Assembly: GCA_964545715.1 (NCBI GenBank)
Contig: CAZJHX010000003.1
Location: 81,644-145,643, forward strand
DNA length: 64,000 bases
Direction of reading: 5' to 3'
Origin: an uncultured Myxococcales bacterium
GTDB taxonomy: Bacteria > Myxococcota_A > UBA9042 > GCA-2863065
Positions 5,826-51,400 of this stretch are shown piece by piece; the stretch's first letter is position 1; each line of letters starts with the position of its first letter. The notes beneath the pieces were generated by a model. That model saw only the letters and a program-made list of their open reading frames with translations. It was not told the DNA's origin and made no database searches. Both the position numbers and the translations under genes were made by a program.

Positions 5826-5851
5826 CGGTCGTGCTCCCCAGGTGTCTTCTC

Positions 5852-8110
5852 TTAGCGACGGTCGCGACGACGTCCGCCGCCACGGTCACCACGGTCACCA
5901 CCACGGCCGCCACCACGGCCGCCACGGTCGTCACGGCCACGGCCGCCACGGTCACGCTGCTCAGCCGCGAAGTCCCGCTCGGGGATCTCCTCGCCCGCCG
6001 CGCGGCGCTGGTCGTACAGCACCTCTTTGCGCGACAACCGGACCTTGCCCTGACGGTCGACGTTGATGACCTTGACCAGGATCTCGTCGCCCTCGCGACA
6101 GACATCCTCGACCGTGTTGACCCGCTCTTCAGCCAGCTCAGAGATGTGAACCAGGCCGTCGGTGCCGGGCATGATCGTCACGAACGCGCCGAAGTCGGTC
6201 ACGCGCGCCACGACGCCCATGTAGGTCTTGCCGGACTCCGGCTCCTCCGTGTAGCTGCGGACCAGCTCGATGGCCTTCTGAGCCGTGTCGCCGTCCGTGG
6301 CCGCGATGTTGACCTTGCCGTCGTCGGTGACGTCGATCTGAGCACCGGTCTGGTCGACGATGCCACGGATGTGCTTGCCGCCGGGGCCGATGAGGTCGCG
6401 GATCTTCTCGGGGTTGATGACCACCGTGAAGATGCGCGGAGCGTGCTCGGACAGGTCCAGGTTGGGCTCGGAGATGCACTTGTCCATCTCGTCGAGGATG
6501 GTCATACGACCGCCCTTGGCCTGGGTCAGCGCGTCTTCCATCGTCTTACGACTCAGGCCGCTGATCTTGATGTCCATCTGCAGCGCCGAGATACCGTCGC
6601 GGTTACCGACGACCTTGAAGTCCATGTCGCCCAGGTGGTCCTCGTCGCCGAGGATGTCGCTGAGGATGGCGAGACGGTCATCGGTCTCGTAGATGAGGCC
6701 CATCGCGATGCCGGCCACGGGGGTCGGAATCGGCACGCCCGCGTCCATCAGCGCCATGGAACCGGCGCATACGGTCGCCATCGAGGAGGAGCCGTTGGAC
6801 TCGAGGACCTCGGAGACGATGCGGATGGTGTAGGGGAAGGTGTCCTGGTCGGGCACGACGTTCTTCAGACCGCGGTGCGCCAGGGCGCCGTGACCGATCT
6901 CGCGACGGCCGGGGCCGCGCAGGAACTTGGTCTCGCCAACGCTGTACGGCGGGAAGTTGTAGTGCAGCATGAAGTCCAGGTTGACGTCGCCGGTCAGCGT
7001 CTCGATGCGCTGGCCGTCTTTGGACGTACCGAGCGTCAGCAGCGCGATGGCCTGCGTCTCGCCACGGGTGAAGACTGCGGAGCCGTGCGTACGCGGGATC
7101 AGGCCCGTCTCACACACGATGCTGCGAACCTGCGTCGGGTTGCGACCGCCGATGCGCTTGCCCTCGTCCAGCACCCAGGCGCGGACGATGTCCTTCTTCA
7201 TGCCACCGATGTAGCCCTTGATCTCTTTGGCGCGCGTAGCCAGCTCTTCCTCGCTGAACTTCGAGAGGATGTCGGCTTTGGCAACGTCCAGAGCGGCGTA
7301 GCGGTCCAGCTTCTCGTTGATCTGAAGCGCCTTGGTCAGCGGCGCCTTGGCCAGCTTGCGGACCTTCTTTTTGAGGTCCTCGTCGACCGTGGGGGCCACG
7401 ACATCGCGCTTGGTCTTGCCACACGCGGCACGCAGCTCCTCGATGGTCTTCATGATGGTCTGACACTTCTCGTGCGCGTAGAAGAGCGCCTCGATCATGT
7501 CTTCCTCGGCCACGAAGTCCGCGCCACCCTCGACCATGCAGATGCCGTCGGGGGAGCAGGCGACCAACAGGTCGATGTCGGCCTCTTCGGCCACGGCCAG
7601 CTCGGGGTTGGCCCGAAGCTGCCCGTCAACGCGAACGACGCGCACACAGGCGGTCGGACCGTTGAAGGGGATGTCGCTGATCGACAGCGCGGCAGAGGCG
7701 CCGTTCATCGCGCAGATGTGCGACTCGTGGACCTTGTCGTGGCTGAGAACGGTGGCGACAACCTGGGTCTCGCAGCGGAAGCCGTCGGGGAACAGCGGCC
7801 GAATCGGCCGGTCCATCAGGCGGCTGGCGAGCACCTCGAACTGGTTCTGGCGACCCTCGCGGCGGAAGTAGTTGCCCGGGATCTTGCCCGCCGCGTACGA
7901 CTTCTCGACGTAGTCACAGGTCAGCGGGAAGAAGTCGATGCCCTCACGAGCGCTCTTGGCGGACGTCGCGGTGACAAGGACGACTGTGTCGCCGATGGAG
8001 GTCATGACCGCGCCGCCGGCCTGTTTGGCGAGCTTCCCGGTCTCAAAGGTAAGTGTCGTCCCGTCGAGCTCGACGCTCTTGGTTACGACGTTAAAGTTCA
8101 AATCTGACAT
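5852..8110 (-). CDS. pnp: Polyribonucleotide nucleotidyltransferase with RGG-rich C-terminal tail
   Basis: [38 protein letters not shown] and S1 domains. Confidence 0.97.
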
Positions 8111-15668: not shown

Positions 15669-16976
15669 ATGACGGCGGCCACATCACGGTTAAAATACGT
15701 CTTTCCCAACGCGGTAACCGCGATCGGGATGCTCTTCGGGTTGTACTCGATTACCCTAACGATTGTAGGGGATTACGAGCAAGCAGCGTGGATGATCCTG
15801 GTCTGCGTCCTGATCGACAAACTGGACGGTAGCGTTGCGCGCCTGCTCAACGCCTCCTCGCGTTTTGGCGTGGAGCTGGATTCCTTCAGTGATTTCCTAA
15901 CATTCGGGGTCGCTCCGGGGCTGCTTTTCCTGAGTCTGATGACCGATGATCCGCGCTATATGTCCACGTGGCAGGGCGGCAGCGTCTGGTTTGTGCGCTT
16001 CTCGTGCGGCTTCTTCATCGTGATGGCGGCGCTGCGACTGGCCAAGTTCAACGTGCTGACTGAGGAGATCGGGTCCAAGATCTTCCTGGGCATCCCGACC
16101 ACGCTGACGGGCGGGACGTTGGCTGCGTACGTCCTGACGGTCTGGAAATACGACCTGCCGGACGTGATGCTGCAGTACGCGCCCGTGATCCTCATCGTCT
16201 TCGGGCTGTGGATGGTGTCCAACGTGCCCATCCCCAAGATTCGGGTCACGAAGAGCCTGGCGTTCAACATCTTTACGGCGGTCAATGCGGTCGGCGCCTA
16301 TGTGTGCACGCCGCTGCAGGTGCTGCCCGAGTACCTGTTCGCGGTCGCCTTCGGCTATTGCACGATCGGCACCTGGTACGCGCTGGTCTTCATGAAGCCG
16401 GAGAAGGCGCCGCCGGAGGACACCCGAGCGCGGCTGCTGGAGCTTCTGAAGGAGCTGAGCTACGAGAACCGCGAGATCACGCTGGCCAGCGGACAGAAGA
16501 GCAACTTCTACGTCGACTGCCGCAACACCTCGCTGCACCCCGAGGGCATCGTGCTGTGCGGGCGCGAGCTGCTGGATCTACTGCAGGAGGATGGCCCGGA
16601 GTTTGACGCGGTGGCCGGCCCGTCGATCGGCGCGGATCCGCTGATCAGCGGGATTCTGCACGCTAGCCAGGAGCGCAAGTCGCCCATTCCGGGGATGTTT
16701 GTGCGCAAAGAGCCCAAAGGGCACGGCACCGGGCGGCTGCTCGAAGGCACGCGCAACGTAAGGGACGGCGCACGCATCGCGATTGTGGAGGACGTCATCA
16801 CCACGGGCGGCTCCGCGATTCGCACGATTCGGGCCGTGCGCGAGGCCGGCTACGAGGTGGTGCGGCTGGTGGCCCTGGTCGACCGCCAGGAGGGCGGCGT
16901 GCCCAAGCTGGAGGCGGAGAAGGTCGAGGTCACGACGCTCTTCAAGAAGAGCGACTTCATCGGGAGCGGCACCTGA
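15669..16976 (+). CDS. Fusion of a CDP-alcohol phosphatidyltransferase (PssA-like) and orotate phosphoribosyltransferase (PyrE)
   Basis: N-terminal DKLDGSVAR..NASSRFGVELDSFSD; C-terminal LASGQKSNFYVDCR, VRKEPKGHG, IVEDVITTGGS; single uninterrupted frame. Confidence 0.9.
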   Translation: MTAATSRLKYVFPNAVTAIGMLFGLYSITLTIVGDYEQAAWMILVCVLIDKLDGSVARLLNASSRFGVELDSFSDFLTFGVAPGLLFLSLMTDDPRYMSTWQGGSVWFVRFSCGFFIVMAALRLAKFNVLTEEIGSKIFLGIPTTLTGGTLAAYVLTVWKYDLPDVMLQYAPVILIVFGLWMVSNVPIPKIRVTKSLAFNIFTAVNAVGAYVCTPLQVLPEYLFAVAFGYCTIGTWYALVFMKPEKAPPEDTRARLLELLKELSYENREITLASGQKSNFYVDCRNTSLHPEGIVLCGRELLDLLQEDGPEFDAVAGPSIGADPLISGILHASQERKSPIPGMFVRKEPKGHGTGRLLEGTRNVRDGARIAIVEDVITTGGSAIRTIRAVREAGYEVVRLVALVDRQEGGVPKLEAEKVEVTTLFKKSDFIGSGT

Positions 16977-17620: not shown

Positions 17621-18534
17621 CGCAGCACACAACATCGGCGTGGGATGACACGCCGCTCTACTATGAGCTGCACGGGCTTCCGGTCGGTGAGGCGCCGGCT
17701 GTGGTGCTGTGCGACGGCATCGGCTGCGACGGCTTCATCTGGAAGTATCTGACGCCCTGGCTGAGCGAGCGGTACACCGTCTTGCACGGCCATTATCGCG
17801 GCCACGGGCGCTCGGGCAAAGCGCCGTCCATGGACCATTATAGTATTGCGGACACGGTCAAAGACCTGTTCACGGTGATGGATGATGCCGGCGTCGAGAG
17901 TGGCCTGCTCTTCGGGCACTCGATGGGCGTGCAGGTGACTATCGAAGCTGCGCTCAGCGCGCCCGAGCGGGTGAACGGGCTCAGCCTGCTCTGCGGCAGC
18001 TTTGGGCGACCGCTGGATACGTGGCACGACCACGCCATGTTGAAGTCTGCGCTGCCTCGCATGCAGTGGTTCATGAGTCGCTTCGGTGGGCTGGTCGAGC
18101 CGGCGCTGCGGCGTCTCATGCCGACCAGCATCGGCTGGCTCTTTGCCCAGGGGGAGGTCGACGGCGCGCTGCTGCGTCGGGAGGACTTCATCCCGTACCT
18201 GGAGCACCTGTCCAAGATGGACAGCTCAGTCTTTCTACGGATGCTGGAGGAGGCGTCCAAGCACACCACTGAGGACCGGCTGCAGCAGCTGGATCGCCCG
18301 GTGCTGATCGTGGGCGGAGAGCGCGACAAGTTCACGCCGTTCTGGGTCAGTGAGGTGTTGGAGAGTCATCTGCCCAACGCGGAGCTGCACATGGTGCGGG
18401 GCGGAACGCATACGATCCCGCTCGAGCATCGAAAGCTGACGGAGATGCTGATCGACAGCTGGCTGTCGCGAAACGCGCTGGCTGAGCCAGTCGCGGATGA
18501 GCCGGCCTACAGGGCGAGCTCGTCGTCCTCGTAG
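17617..18534 (+). CDS. Alpha/beta fold hydrolase
   Basis: YRGHGRS, GHSMG nucleophile elbow, GERDKFTP, GGTH; ATGA overlap with the upstream gene. Confidence 0.9.
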   Translation: MTQHTTSAWDDTPLYYELHGLPVGEAPAVVLCDGIGCDGFIWKYLTPWLSERYTVLHGHYRGHGRSGKAPSMDHYSIADTVKDLFTVMDDAGVESGLLFGHSMGVQVTIEAALSAPERVNGLSLLCGSFGRPLDTWHDHAMLKSALPRMQWFMSRFGGLVEPALRRLMPTSIGWLFAQGEVDGALLRREDFIPYLEHLSKMDSSVFLRMLEEASKHTTEDRLQQLDRPVLIVGGERDKFTPFWVSEVLESHLPNAELHMVRGGTHTIPLEHRKLTEMLIDSWLSRNALAEPVADEPAYRASSSSS

Positions 18535-18905
18535 AAGAGGGTGTCCATCTGCGTGAGCAGTTTGTTGAGGAACTGCTCTTCCCTCCCTTTGATCTCCAGG
18601 AAGCGCACGCCCATGCCGGGGTGCATGACCGGGTTCGTCTCGTCGTACTCGCGGACCCAGCGGACCTCGGCGCGCGTCTCGAACGTGTGATCGACGCCGG
18701 GGACTGAGAAGCTGACCTGCAGAATGCTGCCCAGGGGCAGCGTCTCATAGGTGGAGATGAACAGCCCGCCCGCCGAGATGTCCTCGGTGAAGCCGGTGAA
18801 GAACTGGTGTCCCGTCTGCGCCCCGACCTCGATTCGCTTCGCATGCCGCTCGTGCTCGCGTCGCTCTTCGTAGTTGGGCTGTCGGGCTGTTGACTGCTGT
18901 GGCAT
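18507..18905 (-). CDS. Stand-alone PilZ domain protein (TIGR02266 myxobacterial type)
   Basis: REHER (RxxxR), FFTGFTEDISAGGLFI, EVRWVRE, PGMGVRF. Confidence 0.85.
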   Translation of the reverse strand: MPQQSTARQPNYEERREHERHAKRIEVGAQTGHQFFTGFTEDISAGGLFISTYETLPLGSILQVSFSVPGVDHTFETRAEVRWVREYDETNPVMHPGMGVRFLEIKGREEQFLNKLLTQMDTLFYEDDELAL

Positions 18906-18982: not shown

Positions 18983-20101
18983 TTAGAAAGAGACTCGGAA
19001 GAGCTGCTGGCCCATCAGAAGAAGATCGCCGTCGAAGACCGCGGCGCTGCCCTTGATGCGCACGTACGTGCCGTTGGAGCTGTCGAGGTCCTCCAGGTAG
19101 AGGGCTCCGTTGCGGCGGGTGAGGGTTGCGTGGCGGCCGGAGACGTAGCCGTCGCCGGGGAAGGTGATGTCTCCGCGCTCGCGGCCCAGGGTCACGAAGC
19201 GGCCGCTCAGCAGATAGGAGTTGCCGATGAGATCCGGGCTCATGAGCTGGACGAGGCGACCCCAGACGCCCTCTGAGACCGGGCCGCCGAGCAGCTCGGT
19301 GCCGTCGGACGGGATCGGGTAGTCGGCGGGCGACTTGTCCAGGTCCTCGTAGCGGAGCAGCTCCTGGCCCAGGCGGAAGGTGTCGCCGTGTTGCAGCAGA
19401 GCGGGCTCCGTGATGCGGATGTAGGAGCCGTTCAGAGACTCGTTGTCCTCGACCGTGACCATGTCGCCGTCGACGGTCATGTTGGCATGGTGCGGGCTGA
19501 GGTAGACATCGTCGTCAAAGAACATGTCATTGCCGTCACGGCCCAGGGAGTTGACGCCCTCGAACATCTCGAAGGACCGGCCGTCGGACCCGTCCTCGTT
19601 GATAAGGACCAGGCGGATGCGCGAGTGGTTGCGCTCGCCCGGCTCGGCGACCAGCTCCGGCTCAGGCTCCGGGAAGCGGTAGCCGCAGAGGCCGCAGAAC
19701 TTGGTGCTGTGGTCGAGTACGCCACCGCAGCCCGGGCAGCGCTGGCCGTCGTCTTCCTCGCCGGCGGGCAGGTTCTCCAACGGGTCGGCCGCGGTCTCGA
19801 ACTCGCCCGTTGTGGAGGCGCCCGGGCGCTGATCGGCCGCCCAGTCGGGTGATGAGCCTTCGCCCCACCAGTTGGACTCGACCGGGGCCGTCTCTGCGGC
19901 CGGCACCTCGACGGTGTCCTGGGCCAGGGCCGCGACGTCGGGCTGGGGAGCCGCGGCGACGGGGTCGGGCTTCTTCGGCTTTGGCGCTGCTGCCGGTTTC
20001 AACTCTTGAGCTGCGGGTGCGCGGGACAGATCTCCGCCGCACTTCAAGCAGAACTTGAAGAAGCTCTCGTTGACATGGGTGCAGTGCGGGCACTCCTTCA
20101 T
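18983..20101 (-). CDS. Zinc-ribbon plus double FHA domain protein
   Basis: CPHC..CLKC and CPGC..CGLC; two GR..SxxH..NG[ST] FHA motifs. Confidence 0.9.
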   Translation of the reverse strand: MKECPHCTHVNESFFKFCLKCGGDLSRAPAAQELKPAAAPKPKKPDPVAAAPQPDVAALAQDTVEVPAAETAPVESNWWGEGSSPDWAADQRPGASTTGEFETAADPLENLPAGEEDDGQRCPGCGGVLDHSTKFCGLCGYRFPEPEPELVAEPGERNHSRIRLVLINEDGSDGRSFEMFEGVNSLGRDGNDMFFDDDVYLSPHHANMTVDGDMVTVEDNESLNGSYIRITEPALLQHGDTFRLGQELLRYEDLDKSPADYPIPSDGTELLGGPVSEGVWGRLVQLMSPDLIGNSYLLSGRFVTLGRERGDITFPGDGYVSGRHATLTRRNGALYLEDLDSSNGTYVRIKGSAAVFDGDLLLMGQQLFRVSF

Positions 20102-20170: not shown

Positions 20171-22165
20171 TTGATGCCGATCCATGAGGTACCACTCCAA
20201 GCAGGCCCATCGAGCACCACACCTTTGAAAGTCTGCCCCAAATGCGCCGCTGAATGCTCCGACGAGACAAAGTTCTGCTCGCATTGCGGGGAGTCCGTCG
20301 AGGCTGTGGAGTCTACGAAAGACTCCGGAACGCTGACGGGCAAGGTCATCGCCGGCAACTTCCGGCTCGCTGATACGATCGGCAGCGGGGCCATGGGCGC
20401 CATCTACAAAGCAGAGCAGATCTCGCTCGGCAAGACGGTGGCGATCAAGCTGCTGCACCGGCACCTGCTCAGCGATCCGACGTTGAGCCGGCGCTTTCAC
20501 CGAGAGGCGCGCGCCGCAAGTCGGCTGAACCATCCCAACGCGATCAACATCATCGACTTCGGACAGGCCGAGAACGGCGCGCTCTTCATCGCCATGGAGT
20601 TTGTCGACGGGCGCGACCTCGCCGAGACGCTCTTCGCCGACTACCCGATGAGCTACGACCGCGTGTTCAAGGTGCTCAAACAGGTCTGCCTTGCGCTGGA
20701 CGAAGCCCACGCGGCGTCGATTATTCACCGCGATCTCAAGCCTGAGAACATCATGCTGGAGGACCGCCGCACCGAGAAAGACTTCGTGAAGGTGCTGGAC
20801 TTCGGCATCGCCAAGATTCAGGACGCGACCACCGACGAGGACAGCGGCGGCTGGCAGACGGTGGCCGGCGTCGTGTGCGGTACGCCGGAGTACATGGCGC
20901 CCGAGCAGGCGCGTGGCGAGAAGCTGGACGCGCGCTGTGACCTCTATTCTCTGGGCGTCATCCTCTATCAGATGCTGACCAATGAGATGCCCTACACGGG
21001 GGACTCGCCCATCGCCGTGGTCACGCAGCACCTGACGGAGCCGGTGCCGGACGTGCTGGAGCGCGTGCCGACAGTCGATACAGAGCTGGCCGGGCTCGTG
21101 ACGCGCCTCATGTCCAAGGATCGCGAGAAGCGCTACTCCACTGCCATGCAGGTTCACCGGGAGCTCGAGCGGCTGGAGAAGCGGCTGACCGGCGGCCCGA
21201 CCTACACCGGCACGCTGGTGGGCGCCGGGCGCCAGCTGACGGGCCAGGTGCCTGTCATGCCCGACTCGGAGACCGAGATCGCTCCCATCGCCGTGCAGGT
21301 CTCGGGCATTCACGAGAACGCGACCGCCATTTTCGATTCTGACACAAACCTCGTGCCGTCCCTGGCGCGAAAGGCGCCCGAGCCCCTGGGCACGGAAGCC
21401 GGACTCGAGGCGGCGGCGCTGGTTCGTCAGCGCACCGCCACGCCGATTCTGGCCATAGCGGCCATCGTGGTGTTCGGCATCGGCGGCTTCTTTCTGATGC
21501 GCTACCTAAGCAAGGAGAAAGCATCGGATGATCCGGCCCCTGCCGCGGCAGTGGTTGCACTTGATACGTCCGACACCGCGGGCGTGGAGCCCACCCCGGC
21601 CAAACCTGTCCAAAAGCCGGTAGAGGTGGTCGCAGCACCCGACCCGAAGCCGGGCGGCGTCGTCGCGCCGGTCGAGCAGCCCGTTGTGGCGCCGGTGGAG
21701 AAGCCGGTCGAGAAGCCCGTTGTGGCGCCGGTGGAGAAGCCCGCTGTGGCGCCGGTCGAGAAGCCCGTGGAGCAGCCGGTGGAGAAGCCCGTGGAAAAGC
21801 CGGTGGTGAAGCCCGCGGGCAAGCCCACCGTCAAGAAGCCCACAGCCAAGCCGCGTACCCCGCGCAAGCCGCGCACCGGCGTCAAACCGTCCGGGGGCCA
21901 GAAGAACCTGGCGACCGTCCTTGCGGCCGCGACCGCCGCCAAGCGGGCCGGCAACTGGTCCAAGGTCGCCAGCGCGTACGCCGCCGCCTACAAGCTGAAG
22001 AAGAGCCCGAAATACCTCAAGGAGATCGGTCGCGCGCACCTGAAGTCGGGCAACCAGCCCAAGGCGTGCGGGTACTTCCGCAAGTTCATCAAACGCTACA
22101 AAGGTCAGAAGCGCATCGACCATATCGCTCGCCTTGCTCACTATGGGTGCGATCTGGGAAAGTAG
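20171..22165 (+). CDS. Membrane-anchored Hanks-type Ser/Thr protein kinase with N-terminal zinc ribbon, Pro-rich spacer and C-terminal TPR-like helices
   Basis: IGSGAMGAIY, VAIKLL, HRDLKPEN, DFG, GTPEYMAPE, DLYSLG; transmembrane segment ILAIAAIVVFGIGGFFLM. Confidence 0.95.
   Translation: MMPIHEVPLQAGPSSTTPLKVCPKCAAECSDETKFCSHCGESVEAVESTKDSGTLTGKVIAGNFRLADTIGSGAMGAIYKAEQISLGKTVAIKLLHRHLLSDPTLSRRFHREARAASRLNHPNAINIIDFGQAENGALFIAMEFVDGRDLAETLFADYPMSYDRVFKVLKQVCLALDEAHAASIIHRDLKPENIMLEDRRTEKDFVKVLDFGIAKIQDATTDEDSGGWQTVAGVVCGTPEYMAPEQARGEKLDARCDLYSLGVILYQMLTNEMPYTGDSPIAVVTQHLTEPVPDVLERVPTVDTELAGLVTRLMSKDREKRYSTAMQVHRELERLEKRLTGGPTYTGTLVGAGRQLTGQVPVMPDSETEIAPIAVQVSGIHENATAIFDSDTNLVPSLARKAPEPLGTEAGLEAAALVRQRTATPILAIAAIVVFGIGGFFLMRYLSKEKASDDPAPAAAVVALDTSDTAGVEPTPAKPVQKPVEVVAAPDPKPGGVVAPVEQPVVAPVEKPVEKPVVAPVEKPAVAPVEKPVEQPVEKPVEKPVVKPAGKPTVKKPTAKPRTPRKPRTGVKPSGGQKNLATVLAAATAAKRAGNWSKVASAYAAAYKLKKSPKYLKEIGRAHLKSGNQPKACGYFRKFIKRYKGQKRIDHIARLAHYGCDLGK
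21665..21845 (+). repeat. Coding tandem repeats (PVEKP/PVVAP) in the kinase extracytoplasmic spacer
   Basis: Repeated gcgccggt[cg]gagaagccc[gg]t units in the DNA. Confidence 0.8.
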
Positions 22166-22189
22166 CGGCTCACACTGGAGCCACCGCAC

Positions 22190-23158
22190 ATGAGAGCACC
22201 CGACTCTAACGCCACACATGACGGCGTCCGTCCCTTTGTCGGCGTCAATGGCCATCGCGTCCTTCTGGCAGACCGCGTGCGGACCCACGCGTTTCAGCAG
22301 GCGCTGGAAGAGGTCGTGAAGCCGGGCATGAGCGTCCTGGATATCGGGACCGGCACCGGCATTTTGTCGTTTATCGCCGCGCGCGCCGGCGCCGGCCGTG
22401 TGGTGGGCGTCGATCTGGAGCCGGTCACGCACCTGGCGGCCAAGATCGCCGAGGCGAACGGGCTGTCCGATGTCGTCAGCTTCATTCAGGCGGATAGTCG
22501 GAGCCTGGATTTCGGCGCGGAGTTCGACGTCATCGTCTCGGAGTGCATGGGCAACTTCTTCGTCACCGACGAGATGCAGCTGGCCTTGAAGGACGCGCGC
22601 CGCATGCTCAAGCCCGGCGGCTGCTTCATCCCCAACCGCATTGACCTGCACGTGGCGCCCGTCTTCTTCCCGCAGTTCAACGAGATCAACTTCTGGCGCG
22701 AGGACAAGTACGGCTTTGACTTCGGCCCCGTCGCCGATACCGCGCTGCATCAATGTTATGTGCAGGTGGTGCCCGACAGCCTGCTGATGGGGGCGCCCGT
22801 CCAGTTCGCGTCGATCGACTTCATGGACATGCAGCAGGATCTCACGCGGCGCATGCAGCTGGAGCTGAACAACTCGATCACGATTCACGGGCTGTGCGGC
22901 TGGTTCGACGCGCAGCTGTCAGACAGCGTGCTGCTGAGTACCCATCCACGGGAGCCGGTGACTCACTGGGCACACACCCTGTTCCCGATCGAGCCGACGC
23001 CTCTGCAAAAGGGCGACATTATCGACGTGGAGCTGTCCATCGACCACGCCGGCGACCTCGTACGGCGCGTGGCGTGGGTGGGTGACGTGAAGCGCGGTGG
23101 CGAGGTCGTGCACAGCTTCGATCACGACACCAATCGGCGCTTTGCCAACCAGCTCTAA
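22190..23158 (+). CDS. Protein arginine methyltransferase (PRMT)-like SAM-dependent methyltransferase
   Basis: LADRVRT, VLDIGTGTGILS, VVGVD, DVIVSECMG..DE, LKPGG, FW..YGFDF arm, HGLCGWFD, PVTHW loop. Confidence 0.85.
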   Translation: MRAPDSNATHDGVRPFVGVNGHRVLLADRVRTHAFQQALEEVVKPGMSVLDIGTGTGILSFIAARAGAGRVVGVDLEPVTHLAAKIAEANGLSDVVSFIQADSRSLDFGAEFDVIVSECMGNFFVTDEMQLALKDARRMLKPGGCFIPNRIDLHVAPVFFPQFNEINFWREDKYGFDFGPVADTALHQCYVQVVPDSLLMGAPVQFASIDFMDMQQDLTRRMQLELNNSITIHGLCGWFDAQLSDSVLLSTHPREPVTHWAHTLFPIEPTPLQKGDIIDVELSIDHAGDLVRRVAWVGDVKRGGEVVHSFDHDTNRRFANQL

Positions 23159-23742
23159 TTGAGGAGTAGTCGCCTGGCCAGTGCCAGCGTGTAGTCGGCG
23201 TCTGAGTCCCACAGCGCGTCTCTTCGATCGCGCATCACCGACCTGAGCAGGTACCCCGAGATCAGCTGCAGAGCGACCTCCTGCAGCGGAATCTCGGCGC
23301 GGATCCGGTCACCGCCCTCGCTCCGTACAAACGCGTTCAGCGCCTCTACAAACTGCGCGAGGGCCCCCGAGACCATCTCCGCGTGCGGGCTGGGCGCGAT
23401 CAGCTCACGCGCGATGATCTGCATCAGCGGCGTCCGTTGGGCGGCAAACGCCGTCAGGTTCACCACCACCGCCTCCAGGCGCTCTTCAAAAGTGCCGGCG
23501 CCGGCGATGCCCTCCGCGGCGGCCACCGTCAGCCCCTGGAAGCCGCGCTCGACCACGGCGCTGTACAGCGCGGCCTTGGTTTCGAAGTAATAGAGCAGGG
23601 TAGGGCGCCGTATGCCGGCGGTCGCGGCGATGTCCGCCAGCGCGGCCCCGTGGAAGCCCAATGGCCCGAACTCGCCTTCGGCCGCCTCCAGAATCCGCTG
23701 GTCGGTCGGCCGGCGGTTCGGGTCTTTCTTAGGACGCCCCAT
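23155..23742 (-). CDS. TetR/AcrR family transcriptional regulator
   Basis: RILEAA..F...GFHGAALADIAATAGIRRPTLLYYFETK helix-turn-helix. Confidence 0.92.
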   Translation of the reverse strand: MGRPKKDPNRRPTDQRILEAAEGEFGPLGFHGAALADIAATAGIRRPTLLYYFETKAALYSAVVERGFQGLTVAAAEGIAGAGTFEERLEAVVVNLTAFAAQRTPLMQIIARELIAPSPHAEMVSGALAQFVEALNAFVRSEGGDRIRAEIPLQEVALQLISGYLLRSVMRDRRDALWDSDADYTLALARRLLLN

Positions 23743-24808
23743 CAGTGGCAGCGTAAGCCATGTCGCGCGGCGGGTCGATAGCGCGCAGACGCTCCACCCG
23801 CTCGTCCATCACCCGGCGCCAAAGCGGCGGCGCGAGCGCGATGAGAAACATCGTGGCGTAGCCCGCCGGCAGCTGCGGCGCGTGGGCGTGGTGCCGCAGA
23901 ATCGGGTACTCGCGGCTGGCCAGAAAGTGGTGATCAGAGTGCCGCGGCAGCCCGAAGAGCAGGCGTCCGGTGATGGCGTGGGCCGAGTTCCAGCTGTGCT
24001 CCGGCTGCGTGCGCTCGTACCTGCCGTTTGCGTCGCGCTTGCGCTGCAGACCGTAGTGCTCGATGTAGTTGATGACCTCCAGCATGACGATCGCGACGAC
24101 GCTCTGCGCCGCGAAGAGCAGCAGCCCGAGCGCGCCGCCGATCCAGGACGCCAGCGCCCCTGCGACGACGAGGTTCAGTGCATACCGCACGCGACGATCG
24201 TGCAGCGTGCCGGTTGCGCCGCGCTTGCCGGCCAGACGCGCCTCGATGGCGGCGAAGCTGCTTACACCGCCCAGGATGCTGCGAGGGACAAAGCCGTAGA
24301 CGGTCTCGCCCAGGCGCGCCGTGGCCGGATCCTCCTCGGTCGCGACCCGCTTGTGGTGGCCGTGAACGTGCTCGACGCAGAAGTGCGGGTAGCTCACAGC
24401 GGTCATCAGAACCTCGGCGAGCGCGCGGTCCATGGCGGGCCGTCGGTGCATCAGCTCGTGCGCCGCGTTGATCCCCACGCCGCCGGTGACCCCGACTGCG
24501 AGGATCAGGCCGACGAGCTCCACCGCGGAGAGTCCGCCGCCGGCCACCGTGATCAGGGCGGCGATCAGCACCGTGAGCTGCAGCGGCACCCAGCCCCGGA
24601 CCACACGCCGGAACCAGGGGTCTGCGGCCCGGTCGGCTTCTTGCTGTGCCGTGGGGTTGACCTCGTCGTCACCAACGCTCTCGTCCACAAACGGAACCAG
24701 GACGAAGACGAACAGCACGGGGGCGAGCGTCCACAGGCCGCCTGCCCACAAACCTGCCAGAGCCGAGAGCGGGACGAGATAGGCCACCGAGTAGTGCACA
24801 GCTTTCAT
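23729..24808 (-). CDS. alkB: Alkane 1-monooxygenase (membrane di-iron hydroxylase)
   Basis: His boxes HELMH, EHVHGHH, NYIEHYG, HSDHH; DPATARLGE; HSWNS; PQLPAGY. Confidence 0.9.
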   Translation of the reverse strand: MKAVHYSVAYLVPLSALAGLWAGGLWTLAPVLFVFVLVPFVDESVGDDEVNPTAQQEADRAADPWFRRVVRGWVPLQLTVLIAALITVAGGGLSAVELVGLILAVGVTGGVGINAAHELMHRRPAMDRALAEVLMTAVSYPHFCVEHVHGHHKRVATEEDPATARLGETVYGFVPRSILGGVSSFAAIEARLAGKRGATGTLHDRRVRYALNLVVAGALASWIGGALGLLLFAAQSVVAIVMLEVINYIEHYGLQRKRDANGRYERTQPEHSWNSAHAITGRLLFGLPRHSDHHFLASREYPILRHHAHAPQLPAGYATMFLIALAPPLWRRVMDERVERLRAIDPPRDMAYAATDGAS

Positions 24809-24863: not shown

Positions 24864-25412
24864 TCAGCTGCCGCCTTTCCAGAGGCGCGCGATCGACGCA
24901 TGTGAAGGGTTTTCGGTGTCCGACTTCGTGCAGACATATTGGCTGCATTCCAGGGGCCGAGCCCCGTAGATCCGGCAGCCCTCGCCGTTGAAGAACACAC
25001 ACGTCCCGCGCAGCACCCGATACAGCTCGTCGGCACGCGTCCCGGGCGGTAGGGCCGGCTCGCCGTTACGGTCCAGCTTCACCGGTGCAAACACCTCCAC
25101 CGGCTCGCCGTCCACGTCGATGCTGTCGATGATCAGGAAACGTCGCACAAAGGCGTCCGGGCTCATCTCCGACAGCGCCGCGGCTTTTTCGACCTCGCCC
25201 GGCGCAAACCAGCCGGGACTGGACCGACAACAGATGCCCCGCCGGATGCAGCCGCGCGCCGGGTCCGGATGGGGCGCCGGCTCCTCACTGAGCCAGTATG
25301 GATTGGTGGCTTCCCCGGCGTCTGGACGGTGCTCGATCCGCTCGTCCAGAATTCGGAACTTCTTTTCCTGCTCAGTTTTCACCGTTGTCTGGACGATACC
25401 ACGGGCAGGCAT
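24864..25412 (-). CDS. YkgJ family cysteine-cluster protein
   Basis: CIRRGICC, CVFFNGEGCRIYGARPLECSQYVC. Start uncertain (GTG 25382 possible). Confidence 0.75.
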   Translation of the reverse strand: MPARGIVQTTVKTEQEKKFRILDERIEHRPDAGEATNPYWLSEEPAPHPDPARGCIRRGICCRSSPGWFAPGEVEKAAALSEMSPDAFVRRFLIIDSIDVDGEPVEVFAPVKLDRNGEPALPPGTRADELYRVLRGTCVFFNGEGCRIYGARPLECSQYVCTKSDTENPSHASIARLWKGGS

Positions 25413-25450
25413 TACGATTTGCCCAACCCATCAGCGAGTCGAGAGGAAGC

Positions 25451-25846
25451 ATGTCGGACAAGCCGAGGAAGGATCGCCGTCGAAGCCCACGCGTCAAGGC
25501 AGAGCACGATGTGACGCTGCAAGAAGACTCAACCGAGGCCATACCCTTCTACGCCAAGTCGGCGGACCTCAACCTGGGCGGCATCTACTGCACGCTGGGC
25601 CGGCACACGCCGCTGTTCTCCAAGATGAGCATCACGCTGAACCTGCCCGTGATGGATGACGAGGGCGAGACCCGCGTGATCGAGTGCGCGCTGGACGGCG
25701 TCGTCGTGCGTATCGAGCCCGAAGAGCCGACCGCAGGCTGCGAGGAGTATCACTGCGCGCTGGCGTTCGTGAACACCGACGAGGACGTCGAGCTTCTGCT
25801 GGCGAAGTACCTGCTGCAGACAATGGTCCGCGGCGAGGTCAATTAG
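25451..25846 (+). CDS. PilZ domain protein
   Basis: MSDKPRKDRRRSPRV (RxxxR), DLNLGG, GVVVRIEP, ALAF; AGAGG upstream of ATG 25451. Confidence 0.8.
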   Translation: MSDKPRKDRRRSPRVKAEHDVTLQEDSTEAIPFYAKSADLNLGGIYCTLGRHTPLFSKMSITLNLPVMDDEGETRVIECALDGVVVRIEPEEPTAGCEEYHCALAFVNTDEDVELLLAKYLLQTMVRGEVN

Positions 25847-26625
25847 GTAATCTCGACCCGCACGAGCTGCTTGCCGAGGAAGAGATAGTCGCCGTTCTGC
25901 AGGCCGACCTCTTCACGCACCCGATAATACGTTCCGTTCTTGGAGTCGGTGTCTTCCAGATAGAAGACGCCTTCGCCCATCACCACGCGCGCGTGGTAGT
26001 GGCTCATGAAGCGGTCCGTCGGGAAGTTGAGGTCGCAGTCCTCGCGCCCCACCGTCAGGTTGCCGTTCTCCACGCATCGGACCTCGCCGGTGCGGGCCCG
26101 CGTCAGCACCTGCATGACCTGATATTTCCACGCCCACAGCTGTGGAGTGCCGCAGAAGCACGTCTCCTCGACCCATCGCTCGGCGATCTTGTCGGGGAAG
26201 GTGTGGAACTGGAACATCTGCTCGCCGCACACAAATCGGTCGCCGTCGTGCAGGGGGATGCGACCGCGCAGGCGGATGAACGTGCCGTTGGCGCTGCCCA
26301 TGTCCTGCATGTAGAGCCGGCCTTCCTTGTAATAGAAGTTGGCGTGCTCAGGGGATACGGTCGGGTCATCCGGAAACAAGATCGTCCCGCGGGTGCGCCC
26401 ACAGACGTGCTCGTTGGAGTTCAGGTAGTAGCTGGCGCCGTCTCCACCGCTGCCGCGCAGCAGGACCAGGCGCGCCTTTCGCTTGACGGGTGACGCCTCG
26501 AAAAACGCCGTCTCCGGCGGCTCGGCGTCAACCTGCAGCCCCTCCAGACGGGTCCCGCACACCCCGCAAAACCGGTGACCGGGCGGGACAGGACTTTCGC
26601 AGTTGGGGCACGTCGTCACACTCAT
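25843..26625 (-). CDS. Zinc-ribbon plus double FHA domain protein
   Basis: CPNC..CGVC; GRTRG..SPEHA..SANGT and GREDC..SHYHA..SKNGT. Confidence 0.9.
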   Translation of the reverse strand: MSVTTCPNCESPVPPGHRFCGVCGTRLEGLQVDAEPPETAFFEASPVKRKARLVLLRGSGGDGASYYLNSNEHVCGRTRGTILFPDDPTVSPEHANFYYKEGRLYMQDMGSANGTFIRLRGRIPLHDGDRFVCGEQMFQFHTFPDKIAERWVEETCFCGTPQLWAWKYQVMQVLTRARTGEVRCVENGNLTVGREDCDLNFPTDRFMSHYHARVVMGEGVFYLEDTDSKNGTYYRVREEVGLQNGDYLFLGKQLVRVEIT

Positions 26626-48433: not shown

Positions 48434-51400
48434 ATGGCCAGAAGCATAGAAGCACTGCGCGAGCAGTTGACCGGCGGCGCGGCGCTTGACGAGAGCGCCC
48501 TGCACGAGCTGGAGCAGCACTACTCGACCAACGGTGACGAGCTCTCCCAGCTGTTCGTCACCTACCGCGAAATCGTGGAGTCCGTGACCGACGTGGCCAG
48601 CGTGAGGGTGCTCCGGCGCCGCCTGGTCAAGGTCTTGGATGGGGTTCTGGGCGACGAGTCCAACGAAGCGACCCGAGGGACGCTGCGCCGCCGAAAGGGC
48701 GAGCTGCTGACGTCGCTGGAAGATGGCGACGCGATCGGTGAGCTGGCGCAGGCCTTTCGGGAGCTGCCGGATGAGCAGGTGCTGGACGCGCTGGGCGGCT
48801 TTGTCGACCTGGACGCGCAGCCCGCGCTCAAAGTCGACGTGCTCAGAGCCCGCTTCAAGCTGGCGGGCGAGCCCGGGCGGCGGGCGATCGCGGCGCTGGA
48901 GCTGGGCGCGCAGCTGCTGGGCGATCAGCAGCTGGATGAGGCCGAGGAGATGTTCCAGAGCGTCCTCGAGCTGGAGCCGGGGGACGAGACCGCCACCGGC
49001 GCGCTGACGACGATCACCGAGATTCGCGAGGCCCGCCAGGCGATGCTGGACGAGCTGCGCGCGGACGTCGAAGCGGGCAAGGGCACGGACAAAGTGCCGG
49101 CGCTGCTGGCGCTGGCCGAGGCGATCTTCGATGACGGCGGCGACGAGGCGGAGGCGGTTGCGGCGGTCGAGCAGGCCTGTGAGTTGGTGCCGGGCAACGG
49201 CGATGCGGCGTCACTGTTGCTGTCTCGCTACGTGGCGGACGAGCGGTGGGACGATATCGCGACTGCAGGCGACCGGTGGATCGAAGCGGCCTCCTCAGAC
49301 GACAAGCTGGAGGCGCTGCGGACGGTTGGTGTCGCGCTGCTCGATGGCGGCGAGGACTTCACCGAGCCGGCGTTGGCGCACCTGCAGGCGGCGCACAAGC
49401 TGAACGCGGCTGATCCGGGTACGGTCGATGGTCTGAACCGTGCGTTGAGCGCGCTTGAGCGGCACGACGAGTTGGTGGCTGTGCTGCAGGCGGGCCGCCG
49501 GGCATCGCGCGTGCGCAAGGACGAGCGCCGGTGGTTGGTCCGCGAGGCGGAGATCGTCTGGCGGCATCAGGGCCTGATGGACAAGGCCGAGAAGATGTTC
49601 CGGCGCGTCCGGGCCAGCGATCCGCGCGACATGACCGCGCTGCTCTTTTACGAGGATCACCTGTCGCAGAAGGGCGACTGGAAGCGCCTGCACGCGATTT
49701 TGAGCCAGAAGTTCACGCTGGTGGCCAAGGAGTCGCGCGTCGACGTGGCGTCGCAGATGGCGGACATCGCCGAAAACAAGATGAGCAACCTGGCCAAGGC
49801 GATCGAGGCCTACAAGCGCGTGCTTATCGAGGATCCGAGCAATCTGCGTGGGGCCGAGCACCTGGTCGAGCTGTACCGCAAGACCGGCAAGTGGCACGCC
49901 CTGATCGAGTTCCTGAACAGCCAGATCCGACGGCTGGGCGCCCAGGACATCGAGGCGCGCGTGGCGCTGCTGTTCCAGATCATCGACGTCTACCAGGACC
50001 CGGACAAGCTGCCGGTCGAAGAGATGGTCATCCACACCTACAACCGCATCGTGCAGGTGTCGCCGACCAACGTGGTCGCGCTGGACAACCTGGCGCAGCG
50101 CTACGAGGACTCTCGGCGCTGGAGCGAGCTGGTCAAGGTGCTGCAGAAGAAGATCCACGCCACGACGGACGCGGAGATGCTGCTGGACCTGTTCCACCAG
50201 GTGGCCGACCTGTACCTGTCGAAGATGTCCAGCGAGAGCCAGGCGATCCCGTTCCTGGAGCGCATTCTGGAGCTGGATCCGACCAACCTGGACGTCGTGC
50301 GCAAGCTGCGCTCGATCTACAAAGCCAAACACAACCTGGAGCGGCTGTACGGCACGTACGAGGCCGAGCTCAACCTGTTGGAGGGCAAGAAGCGCGAGCC
50401 CGTGCTGACCGAGCTGGCGGTGCTGGCCACGGACAAGCTGTACTGGCAGGCGCAGGCGATCGAGCACTGGGAAGAGCTGCTCGGCCTGAACCCCAAGAAC
50501 GAGAAGGCGGTCACCAGCCTGTACGCGCTGTATGCGCAGGACGGGCGGTGGGAGAAGTACGTCGAGCTGCTGGAGAGCCGGCTGGAGCTGGCGCGGACCA
50601 AGCGCAAGAAGGTCGAGATTCTCGGCCGCATCGGCCAGATCCGGTTCGAGAAGCTGGACCAGGTCGACGAAGCGGTCAAAACGTACAAGCAGATTCTGAA
50701 GACCAGCGCGCACAACGCGGCGGCGCGCAAAGCGCTGCAGCGGATCTACATCTCGGCGCAGGACTGGGACGCGCTGAAGGCGCTGTATGCCGAGCAGAAG
50801 GACTGGACCGGGTACATCGCGTTCTTGGACGAGACCGCCTCGCAGGAAGACGATCCGGTGCTGGCGGCCGAGATTCAGCTCGAGGTCGTGAGGGTCTTTG
50901 AGGAGAAGCTCAAGAAGAAGGCGAAGGCCGTTGAGCGGCTGGAGCAGGTGCTGGAGAAAGACGCGCAGAACGTGGATGTCGCGGCGATGCTGGACGAGCG
51001 CTACTCCGCGCTGAAAGAGACGGAGAAGCGCGTGCCTGTGCTGCAGGTGATTGCGGATTACAGTCAGGCGCCCGCGGCGGTGATCGAGGCGCTGCGCATG
51101 GGTGTGGAGCTGCTGCTTGGCGGCGACAAGGCGTCCGACGCGCTCGACTGGGCGATGAAGGCGGTTGACGCCGGGATCGACGAGGGACAGCTCGAGGGCG
51201 TTGATCAGCTGGAGGAGCTGGCGGACAAAGCGGAGCGGCTGGAGGACCTGTCGGCGTGGTACGGCGATGCCGCCACGCGCGTTGGTGCGCCGGAGGACCG
51301 CACGGATCTGCTGAAGCGGCATGCCGAGCTGCTGCGCCATCGTCTGCGGAAGAACGCCGACGCGATCGAGGTGTATGAGGAGCTCAGCCGCGCGGATGAC

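Follow-up and report, generated by a model that had tools for sequence, protein, structure and literature searches.

The kinase–PRMT locus

Two genes lie one behind the other on the forward strand of the window, by which we mean the whole 64-kb stretch of DNA that was analysed. The upstream gene (20171..22165) encodes a receptor-type Hanks Ser/Thr kinase of 664 aa (Pfam Pkinase, 1.1e-49, and Zn_Ribbon_1), and the downstream gene (22190..23158) a protein arginine methyltransferase (PRMT)-family protein of 322 aa, assigned by Pfam, phmmer against the PDB, an AF2 model, Foldseek and a table of residue conservation. Both reading frames, and the 24 nt between the kinase stop (TAG, 22163-22165) and the PRMT start (ATG, 22190-22192), lie where a preliminary description of this DNA had placed them. 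The spacer itself (22166..22189, +), read directly, carries a Shine–Dalgarno GGAG at 22177-22180, 9 nt ahead of the PRMT ATG, and a scan of it for terminators and promoters found neither. At homologous loci the junction measures 2 nt (L001) or 8 nt (L095), or is a 4-nt overlap (L004 and L098); the stop/start codon overlap in the last two lineages suggests that kinase and PRMT are translationally coupled. A single strand, a short junction, a ribosome-binding site and a junction kept in relatives are all operon-type features, and from this arrangement the two genes are predicted to form one two-gene operon and to be co-transcribed. Because the window holds just one kinase gene in 64 kb, their adjacency is not due to kinase crowding.

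From its N-terminus, the kinase comprises a four-Cys zinc ribbon (residues 22-41), the kinase domain (66-327), a predicted transmembrane (TM) helix (~428-449), a Pro/Glu/Lys-rich repeat linker and a C-terminal domain of ~75 aa with a conserved Cys pair, which is probably periplasmic; the protein has one hydrophobic segment, ILAIAAIVVFGIGGFFLMRYL. The motifs VAIK, HRDLKPEN, DFG and TPEYMAPE are all present and are invariant in four orthologues, and the C-terminal domain with its Cys633 and Cys660 is likewise conserved among orthologues. The (PVEK)-like linker is encoded by a 12-nt tandem repeat (21658..21815, +; Tandem Repeats Finder: period 12, 10 copies) that varies in length between assemblies, with a 24-aa indel separating contigs whose PRMT genes are 100% identical.

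A full-length PRMT with a partly divergent active site

ORF 22190-23158 is a full-length, type-I-like member of the PRMT family. Pfam PRMT_C matches residues 152-288 at 2.7e-19 (70.2 bits against a cutoff of 27), next to Pfam methyltransferase domains, and phmmer aligns residues 15-285 with PRMT1 homologues in the PDB at 2.4e-34 to 4e-33. The PDB matches to PRMT1, Hmt1, PRMT8, CARM1 and PRMT6 together span 1e-34 to 1e-30, PRMT7 and PRMT9 match far less well, and the 60 matches listed include no chain of PRMT5. The AF2 model (pLDDT 93.3, pTM 0.90) retrieves type I PRMTs throughout the Foldseek top 50, with TM scores of 0.77-0.85 over ~315 columns at 21-30% identity, and aligns over its full length with PRMT1/2/4/6/8 (TM ~0.83). 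The motifs quoted in the preliminary description, VLDIGTGTGILS (motif I), LADRVRT, SECMGNFFVTDE, FWREDKYGFDF, HGLCGWFD and PVTHW, are all found in the translation; its placement of the protein in the PRMT family agrees with the Pfam, PDB and Foldseek results, and the arm and THW loop that it read from the letters are seen, with the beta-barrel, in the model and the fold search.

The chain begins with an N-terminal helix (H22, L25, D28, R31) and a Rossmann SAM domain (~44-147) with motif I VLDIGTGTG, and goes on through a double-E-type loop, E118...D127-E128 (nt 22541-22573), to a beta-barrel (~148-313), an arm (~159-189) and the THW loop T258-H259-W260 (nt 22961-22969). In the AF2 model the barrel consists of ~10 strands within residues 140-313 (pLDDT above 90), and the arm segment has short helices at 167-170 and 179-185 (pLDDT ~95) and contains FWREDKYGFDF, which aligns with WWENVYGFDM of PRMT1.

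Much of the catalytic apparatus is conserved. Motif I has invariant D51, G53, G55 and G57; the post-I acidic residue D75 corresponds to PRMT1 E100, a position that is D/E across the family; and the motifs FDVIVSE and LKPGG are found. Residues H22, D28 and R31 correspond to PRMT1 H45, D51 and R54, which bind SAM and shape the active site, and are kept in every full-length clade member and in 12/12 eukaryotic sequences of the alignment, while G53/G55, E118, M129 and T258-H259-W260 correspond to PRMT1 G78/G80, E144, M155 (one of two type I product-specificity methionines) and T-H293-W. One N-terminally truncated fragment apart, this whole set is present in 26/26 clade members, and the THW loop is present in all 26.

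In PRMT1 the two glutamates of the double-E loop, E144 and E153, hold the substrate guanidinium. In the double-E-type loop proposed in the preliminary description, E118 matches E144 and is invariant, and the alignment puts Asp127, not Glu128, at the position of E153. This residue is Asp in 26/26 Myxococcota-clade sequences, where a conserved acidic residue (E128) follows it, and Glu in the eukaryotic set and most other relatives, so that acidic character is kept on a side chain shorter than that of Glu. Of the N-terminal YFxxY of type I PRMTs (helix alpha-X lid) a single aromatic residue is left, Phe16, opposite PRMT1 Y39; G12, V13, R14 and P15 take up the remaining positions, in a segment modelled at lower confidence (pLDDT ~72). 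Finally, the other product-specificity methionine, PRMT1 M48, is matched by Leu25 in the kinase-linked clade, whereas 16/18 sequences from the sister Myxococcota clade and every eukaryotic sequence have Met there. Given Asp127, the missing YFxxY lid and Leu in place of PRMT1 Met48, the activity of the PRMT or the type of its product may therefore differ.

Bacterial ancestry

The PRMT family is usually taught as eukaryote-only. Arginine methylation has been termed eukaryote-specific (PMC7743719), and the preliminary description took the protein to be eukaryote-like and PRMTs to be essentially eukaryotic. That premise is outdated. The query sits in a prokaryotic PRMT radiation of 762 clusters (50% identity) below 1e-30, of which more than 150 score at least 157 bits with it, as against at most 122 bits for any eukaryotic PRMT in the PDB, and full-length copies of the family occur in many phyla and in Thorarchaeota. 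In a neighbour-joining (NJ) tree, the phylogeny that the preliminary description had suggested as a check, the query nests in a Myxococcota PRMT clade apart from eukaryotic PRMT1/3, and the eukaryotic sequences form a clade of their own several nodes away. The named NusA relatives are Myxococcota, Myxococcales or Deltaproteobacteria. As judged from these sequence comparisons, the ancestry of the PRMT is bacterial, which matches the account of bacterial PRMT-like “peptide methylases” by Aravind, Abhiman, and Iyer (2011) as far as it is summarised in PMC3417536. According to that summary, eukaryotic PRMTs are proposed to derive from the prokaryotic PRMT-like radiation, and their closest bacterial relatives sit in antibiotic-like biosynthesis operons (PMC3417536).

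A conserved PilZ/FHA block and the reach of the kinase linkage

The pair is embedded in a block of conserved genes. Its outermost member on the left encodes a PilZ-domain protein of 132 aa (18507..18905, −; Pfam PilZ 1.5e-17), with orthologues of 60-65% identity at the equivalent position in L001, L004 and L095. Next to it and divergent from the kinase gene lies a gene for a 372-aa protein with two zinc ribbons and two FHA domains (18983..20101, −; Pfam FHA 7.7e-24 in two stretches, with DZR/zinc-ribbon matches), which is 59-71% identical and equivalently placed in the same three lineages. To the right are a putative zinc/iron-chelating CxxCxxCC protein (24864..25412, −; Pfam CxxCxxCC 7e-05), 63-75% identical in L001, L004 and L098; a second PilZ-domain protein (25445..25846, +; Pfam PilZ 8e-08), 51-70% identical in L001, L004, L095 and L098; and a second zinc-ribbon and double-FHA protein of 260 aa (25843..26625, −; Pfam FHA 7.9e-25), which is 74-76% identical in L001 and L098 and is a paralogue, at 31% identity, of the 18983-20101 product. 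In relatives the CxxCxxCC gene lies directly downstream of the PRMT gene and convergent to it, whereas in the window TetR and desaturase genes intervene. The conserved block contains no NRPS, RiPP precursor, RRE, oxygenase or transporter genes, and no substrate motif candidates specific to the PRMT-linked lineages were found. An FHA gene beside the kinase is also kept in the PRMT-less kinase loci L099-L111, and a skeleton in which a kinase gene is flanked by one divergent and one convergent FHA gene is common to ~50%-identical kinases from soil metagenomes.

Synteny of kinase and PRMT, raised in the preliminary description, is indeed conserved in five lineages (the window, L001, L004, L095 and L098); their PRMTs share 54-68% pairwise identity, and their junctions extend from 4 nt of overlap to 24 nt of spacing. 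Three lineages show rearrangements immediately downstream of the PRMT gene, namely the TetR and desaturase insertion, loss of the CxxC gene, and a swap of the CxxC and second PilZ genes; between kinase and PRMT there is none in the five. The left flanks of the block in L004 differ from those in the window and L095, and L181, a NusA-anchored relative, lacks the block, which thus behaves as a unit. The linkage is confined to one eight-member PRMT clade. Nested in that clade is P0003 (58% identity), which is not linked to a kinase and whose gene lies just downstream of one for a secreted Cys/Arg-rich repeat protein. Myxococcota PRMTs at 40-45% identity occur in unrelated contexts without the kinase, some with a small membrane protein, a GHMP kinase and an ECF sigma factor, others with an ABC transporter or DUF4846. 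The pairing was found at 0/14 distant full-length PRMT-like loci and at 0/80 other kinase loci. L001, the closest relative, shares synteny over much of the surrounding region, and some of the conservation may reflect inherited gene order and not selection.

Proposed role and alternative explanations

We favour, at a probability of roughly 60%, the reading that a bacterial arginine methyltransferase was recruited into an FHA-kinase signalling operon. The first cistron would supply a receptor-type kinase whose zinc ribbon and kinase domain face the cytoplasm and whose single TM helix leads to a sensor-like tail in the periplasm; the second would supply the PRMT. The pair lies inside a conserved block of c-di-GMP-type (PilZ) and phospho-threonine-reading (FHA) proteins that a clade of uncultured marine Myxococcota carries. 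The PRMT itself has a type-I-like active site and most likely uses SAM to methylate the guanidino nitrogen of arginine in one or more cytoplasmic proteins or peptides, presumably to an ADMA-type product, and by analogy with eukaryotic PRMT1 it probably acts as an arm-mediated homodimer. Since the older FHA–kinase–FHA module exists without it, the PRMT seems to have joined the module in a single recruitment event basal to the clade; by virtue of this recruitment it would be expressed with the kinase and, we propose, plausibly wired to it. The kinase or the FHA proteins could regulate or recruit the PRMT, or PRMT and kinase could modify common targets. The fuller version of this idea, which builds on the phosphorylation/arginine-methylation signalling module suggested in the preliminary description, is a true unit of this kind in which the kinase, sensing a periplasmic cue, controls or is controlled by the PRMT encoded on the same mRNA, with the FHA and PilZ proteins as partners or substrates; we regard it as tentative and, in so complete a form, rather unlikely. 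The literature searched yielded no biochemical evidence for any bacterial PRMT, nor a protein substrate demonstrated for any bacterial enzyme of the family.

How much of this could be adjacency without function? The PRMT may be active but independent of the kinase, with housekeeping targets (ribosomal, RNA-binding or RNA-polymerase-associated), its position reflecting inherited order or simple co-expression in one lineage. This is a real possibility, if not the one we would bet on. The sister-clade members P0017 and P0121 (~40% identity) are fused to Rnk_N and a GreA/GreB C-terminal domain, a combination that in known proteins makes an RNA-polymerase secondary-channel factor; neither P0003 nor any of the 40-45%-identical relatives comes with the kinase; the older module works without a PRMT; and the broad synteny with the closest relative implies that the conservation is partly inertia. 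Yet the pair stays contiguous down to 54% PRMT identity, does so while downstream genes are rearranged and the flanks of the block differ, and overlaps at stop and start in two lineages in the manner of translationally coupled genes. It is improbable that the protein is instead a PRMT-fold methylase acting on the guanidino groups of peptides or small molecules in secondary metabolism (RiPP or NRPS tailoring) and not a protein-modifying signalling enzyme. The antibiotic-like operons cited above for the closest bacterial relatives of eukaryotic PRMTs speak for such a role, as do the fusion of the relative P0140 to a PqqD/RRE peptide-recognition domain and the Cys/Arg-rich protein encoded next to P0003; however, the PqqD fusion sits in a distant branch of the tree, and the block around our pair contains the signalling proteins PilZ, FHA and kinase in place of biosynthetic genes.

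Two further identities were considered and rejected. That a eukaryote passed the gene on recently, or that eukaryotic DNA contaminates the assembly, might be suspected from the solved structures, where the best matches are eukaryotic PRMT1 homologues and no prokaryotic PRMT-family chain is among the PDB matches listed. The contig is nevertheless bacterial, at 65% GC with no compositional break around the PRMT gene and with NusA/RimP, PilZ and TetR genes in its surroundings; the same gene recurs on at least three independent metagenome contigs, of up to 168 kb; and the clusters that outscore every eukaryotic PRMT, together with the NJ tree, leave this origin a negligible chance. Equally far-fetched is an identity as a PrmA-type ribosomal protein L11 (lysine/N-terminal) methyltransferase or, with the kinase, as a MADS-like phage-defence pair, even though “50S ribosomal protein L11 methyltransferase” is the public annotation of some relatives, Pfam PrmA reaches 54 bits, and PADLOC mad2 (66 bits) and mad6 (220 bits) match the two proteins. 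The PrmA and mad2 matches are confined to the generic Rossmann region (residues 37-147), covering profile positions 153-257 of 296 and 105/492 positions, respectively; the NCBIfam models TIGR00406, NF001790 and NF001785 score 39-49 bits against cutoffs of 183-269, and MAD6 148 bits against 460; there are no further MADS genes or defence matches among the neighbours; and a PRMT beta-barrel makes up the C-terminal half. By family membership the PrmA and MADS readings are thus refuted, and the distinction from PrmA drawn in the preliminary description was right.

Significance and comparison with known systems

PRMTs are central regulators in eukaryotes and drug targets. The locus offers a compact, canonical-looking bacterial PRMT of 322 aa without accessory domains, and its partners, a receptor kinase, two FHA and two PilZ proteins, amount to a short list of candidate regulators or substrates. 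If the enzyme is active on proteins, regulated arginine methylation would exist in bacteria, and there would be an experimental handle on the origin of the eukaryotic enzymes from a bacterial radiation. If the signalling unit is true, arginine methylation would be a regulated bacterial signalling modification, and the locus a simple prokaryotic model, possibly an evolutionary precursor, of the crosstalk between phosphorylation and arginine methylation in eukaryotes. Should the protein not act on proteins, or act independently of the kinase, it would be one more member of a computationally recognised, uncharacterised family.

With the Hanks kinase/FHA modules of myxobacteria the locus shares an active-looking kinase with adjacent FHA genes, but the block of this clade additionally encodes the PRMT, both PilZ proteins and a CxxCxxCC protein; the literature searched yielded no such association. 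With PrmA the PRMT shares the class I Rossmann SAM-binding domain and differs in lacking the N-terminal substrate-binding domain of PrmA, while PrmA in turn has no beta-barrel, arm or THW loop. The bacterial “peptide methylases” of Aravind and colleagues belong to the same prokaryotic radiation, but the groups described in the summary (PMC3417536) lie in secondary-metabolite operons (NRPS, oxygenase, amine-oxidase) or inside giant synthetases, whereas the window PRMT lies in a PilZ/FHA/Ser-Thr-kinase block without biosynthetic genes. The eukaryotic type I PRMTs (PRMT1/Hmt1, PRMT8, PRMT6, CARM1, PRMT2 and PRMT3) have the same N-terminal helix, Rossmann domain and barrel with arm, and motifs I, post-I, II and III, the first double-E glutamate, Met129 and THW are common to both; in contrast to them, the window PRMT is bacterial (Myxococcota), has no extra targeting domains, carries Asp127-Glu128, Phe16 in place of YFxxY and Leu25 in place of Met48, and is the second cistron of a predicted kinase operon.

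Organization of the kinase–PRMT junction

The Ser/Thr kinase gene (20171-22165, +, 664 aa) and the protein arginine methyltransferase (PRMT) gene that follows it (22190-23158, +, 322 aa) lie on the same strand of a window whose GC content, about 65%, is uniform along its length; the former is the only kinase gene in the 64 kb. Direct reading of the sequence bore out the ORF positions, strand and 24-nt gap given in the preliminary description, and the peptide motifs quoted there are all present in the PRMT translation. The spacer between the kinase stop codon (TAG, 22163-22165) and the PRMT ATG at 22190 carries GGAG at 22177-22180, 9 nt 5′ of the ATG, and a consensus scan found neither a terminator-like nor a promoter-like site between the two genes. 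We infer from this operon-like junction that the PRMT gene is co-transcribed with the kinase gene, possibly with translational coupling.

The kinase begins with a four-Cys zinc ribbon, followed by a Hanks kinase domain with every catalytic motif; one predicted transmembrane helix then leads, through a (PVEK)-like repeat linker, to a domain of about 75 residues that has a conserved Cys pair and is probably periplasmic. The linker DNA is a 12-nt tandem repeat (21658-21815), which is 24 aa (72 nt) longer on three contigs from other marine metagenomes (L088, L089 and L090) whose PRMT gene is 100% identical, a difference reflecting either copy-number polymorphism or assembly collapse. Divergently upstream lie genes for a zinc-ribbon/double-FHA protein and a PilZ protein, and in relatives the PRMT gene is followed on its 3′ side by genes for a CxxCxxCC protein, a second PilZ protein and a second zinc-ribbon/double-FHA protein; we call the whole cluster the block. 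In the window one gene for a TetR regulator and one for a membrane fatty-acid desaturase (23155-24808, −) separate the PRMT from the CxxCxxCC gene, an arrangement seen only in this lineage, the relatives having CxxCxxCC or PilZ directly after PRMT. The stops of the convergent TetR and PRMT genes overlap by 4 nt.

Elsewhere in the window, a single 3,820-aa ORF (48434-59896, +) is rich in TPR repeats and has a weak ARM-repeat match near its N-terminus. Another (15669-16976, +, 435 aa) joins a CDP-alcohol phosphatidyltransferase domain to a half that, judged by eye, is phosphoribosyltransferase-like; on L181, a contig of a relative, the counterparts of these halves are two genes overlapping by 4 nt (5832-7183), so that the two loci differ either by fusion of the genes or by a frameshift.

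Fold and active site

The proposal that the downstream gene encodes a PRMT rather than a PrmA-type methyltransferase held up in both profile and structure comparisons. Pfam assigns residues 152-288 to PRMT_C, the “arginine methyltransferase oligomerisation subdomain” (2.7e-19; 70 bits, cutoff 27), and residues 44-152 to generic SAM-methyltransferase domains. The best match among PDB sequences is Naegleria PRMT1 (2.4e-34), with yeast Hmt1 at 4e-33 and PRMT1, PRMT8, CARM1 and PRMT6 at about 1e-31 to 1e-30; PRMT7 and PRMT9 match far more weakly. Modelled by AlphaFold2 from 33 homologues (mean pLDDT 93.3, pTM 0.90), the protein has a predicted Rossmann fold and then an all-beta domain that carries a short inserted helical segment at about residues 159-189. 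When Foldseek compared the model with the PDB, the 50 best matches were without exception type I PRMTs (PRMT2, 1, 8, 6 and CARM1), with TM-scores of 0.77-0.85 across 306-325 columns. Given these Pfam, PDB, AlphaFold2 and Foldseek results, the beta-barrel, the arm and the THW loop, the features that set PRMTs apart from PrmA, are truly present. A PrmA identity was rejected because similarity to PrmA is confined to the Rossmann region and this protein scores below the cutoff of every NCBIfam model, those for PrmA among them. A MADS-like defence reading (PADLOC mad2/mad6, PD-T4-6) was likewise discarded, the matches being to generic domains only.

In an alignment that joins 253 relatives with a handful of eukaryotic sequences, and with PRMT1 as the reference, H22, D28, R31, G53, G55, D75, E118 and M129 correspond to PRMT1 H45, D51, R54, G78, G80, E100, E144 and M155, respectively, and T258-H259-W260 to T-H293-W; all of these positions are kept in the clade to which the protein belongs. 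Compared with canonical PRMT1, it departs at three points. At the second double-E position (PRMT1 E153), the eukaryotic set and most relatives outside the Myxococcota clade have Glu; here it is Asp127, as in 26 of the 26 sequences of that clade, with a conserved acidic residue (Glu128) directly after it. The YFxxY motif is cut down to Phe16, and the Met48 position is Leu25 within the kinase-linked subclade. Since the variant residues are strictly conserved, they argue for a functional enzyme under selection. Such an enzyme would transfer methyl groups from SAM to arginine guanidino groups in cytoplasmic proteins, presumably giving a type-I-like product and acting as an arm-mediated dimer.

Bacterial ancestry of the PRMT

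The view of arginine methylation as eukaryotic is still common (PMC7743719), and the preliminary description started from the premise that PRMTs are essentially eukaryotic. This premise is contradicted by the presence of relatives in many bacterial phyla and by their scores. When 1.84 billion cluster representatives were searched exhaustively with HMMER, 18,367 relatives fell below 1e-3, 762 of them below 1e-30; the best 150 score at least 157 bits, as against 122 bits for the top-scoring eukaryotic PRMT of the PDB, and the taxon-named members among them are Myxococcota. A contig search with the family alignment, for which generic SAM motif I served as the pattern, gave at least 600 matches. 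Those listed include no close relative, and they place full-length PRMT-like genes in genomes labelled Nannocystis, Vampirovibrionales, Acidimicrobiia, Streptomyces, Opitutus, Aquibaculum, Acidobacteria, Chitinophaga, Planctomycetes, Thermoanaerobaculia and Thorarchaeota. Public annotations name the PRMT-like proteins of Candidatus Thorarchaeota (P0076, P0077 and L020; about 279 aa, 26-29% identity) “50S ribosomal protein L11 methyltransferase”.

A rough neighbour-joining tree, midpoint-rooted, lacking support values and used for coarse placement only, nests the protein in an 8-member clade within a 26-member Myxococcota clade, itself within a clade of 61 members, a Nannocystis MAG among them, and puts eukaryotic PRMT1/PRMT3 in a separate clade elsewhere among bacterial lineages. 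The named relatives of NusA from the window are solely Myxococcota, Myxococcales or Deltaproteobacteria (identity up to 83%), and an identical PRMT gene is present on several marine metagenome contigs, the longest of 168 kb. Recent transfer from eukaryotes and contamination were both rejected on the uniform GC content, the copies on other contigs, the HMMER scores and the tree; the ancestry of the gene is bacterial.

Conservation and history of the linkage

Eight close relatives, with PRMTs 45-68% identical to one another, were compared; the contexts of L179, on a contig of 1 kb, and of L097, where the gene lies at the edge of its contig, were left out of the linkage count. The PRMT gene directly follows the kinase gene in the window (24 nt) and in four loci of relatives: L001 (2 nt), L004 (4-nt overlap), L095 (8 nt) and L098 (4-nt overlap). 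Conserved synteny with the kinase, which the preliminary description named as a check, was found in five lineages and, among the loci compared, is confined to this clade. Three lineages are rearranged right after the PRMT gene (an insertion of TetR and desaturase in the window, no CxxC in L095, CxxC and PilZ2 in swapped order in L098), and none of these rearrangements splits kinase from PRMT. The block behaves as a unit, because its left flanks differ, that of L004 being unlike those of the window and L095, and because L181 (NusA 75% identical) keeps the NusA-to-abhydrolase backbone with the whole block missing. L181 is syntenic with the window along RimP-NusA-IF2-RbfA-TruB-S15-PNPase and on the abhydrolase side; epimerase, steroid-dehydrogenase-like and polysaccharide-synthesis genes stand there in place of PilZ-FHA-kinase-PRMT, so that L181 bears on the block as a whole and not on the pairing of kinase with PRMT.

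One close relative, P0003 (58% identical), has no kinase beside it although it is nested within the linked clade of the neighbour-joining tree, which suggests a later relocation or duplication. Just upstream of it (L091, 5348-5866) is a gene for a secreted, Cys- and Arg-rich 172-aa protein with six repeats of CSSDSDCxxGRCRNNxCGG. Farther out, a kinase adjoins none of three Myxococcota PRMTs at 42-45% identity, whose neighbours are unrelated, and none of 14 distant full-length PRMT-like loci among the matches listed. A metagenome search with the kinase found a PRMT at none of the 80 other kinase loci among the matches listed, where the closest kinases reach at most 52% identity. The skeleton of a rightward kinase gene between two leftward FHA genes persists, with PRMT absent, around kinases that are about 50% identical and share the zinc-ribbon architecture. 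At such loci from a soil metagenome (L099-L111), a zinc-ribbon/double-FHA gene stands on each side of the kinase, and PRMT, PilZ and CxxCxxCC genes are lacking; this looks like an older FHA-kinase-FHA module. The simplest history would have a Myxococcota PRMT recruited once into the older FHA-kinase module and then retained.

Possible roles and relation to known systems

Fusions in other relatives bear on what the gene pair might do. In P0017 and P0121 (Myxococcales, about 40% identical) the PRMT is fused C-terminally to Rnk_N and a GreA/GreB C-terminal domain, a combination known from RNA-polymerase secondary-channel factors, which is a hint that the transcription machinery is a target of some Myxococcota PRMTs. 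A small ORF 3′ of the unlinked Myxococcota P0014 was considered as a free-standing GreA/Rnk domain and rejected, having no similarity and encoding a small membrane protein. In the distant P0140 (498 aa) the fusion partner is a PqqD/RRE domain, by which RiPP pathways recognise their peptides. Because the GreA/Rnk and PqqD/RRE fusions occur in separate relatives, the family is attached to differing targeting devices by lineage: transcription-factor-like, RiPP-like and TPR. The kinase operon may play the targeting role in this clade, though the fusions offer no more than a hint of it.

Gene order makes it conceivable, as a speculation, that the kinase or the FHA proteins control or recruit the PRMT, or that both enzymes share targets. 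The main alternative is that the PRMT works independently of the kinase, adjacency reflecting co-expression or inherited order; we regard this as rather unlikely, though it deserves serious weight. Comparison of the kinase sequences nominated no PRMT substrate specific to the linked kinases: their Gly/Arg juxtamembrane stretch (VGAGRQ / VGGGRS) was dropped as a GAR-like substrate because PRMT-less kinases carry similar R/G-rich stretches before the transmembrane helix. A role in methylating secondary-metabolite peptides, consistent with the P0140 fusion for some bacterial branches, is quite improbable here, as no biosynthetic genes lie alongside the PRMT. The preferred reading remains a bacterial PRMT linked to, and perhaps coupled with, its kinase.

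Bacterial PRMT-like proteins are already recognised through comparative genomics (PMC3417536), so the family assignment is not new, and some annotation pipelines label bacterial relatives as PRMT-like. A non-exhaustive literature search, covering few subscription journals, found no description of a characterised bacterial PRMT or of a kinase-PRMT operon. The enzyme gives a clean and testable way into arginine methylation in bacteria. As a canonical PRMT whose active site has undergone a Glu-to-Asp change specific to its clade, it differs from the known systems, and its genomic arrangement with a receptor kinase, FHA and PilZ proteins is new.
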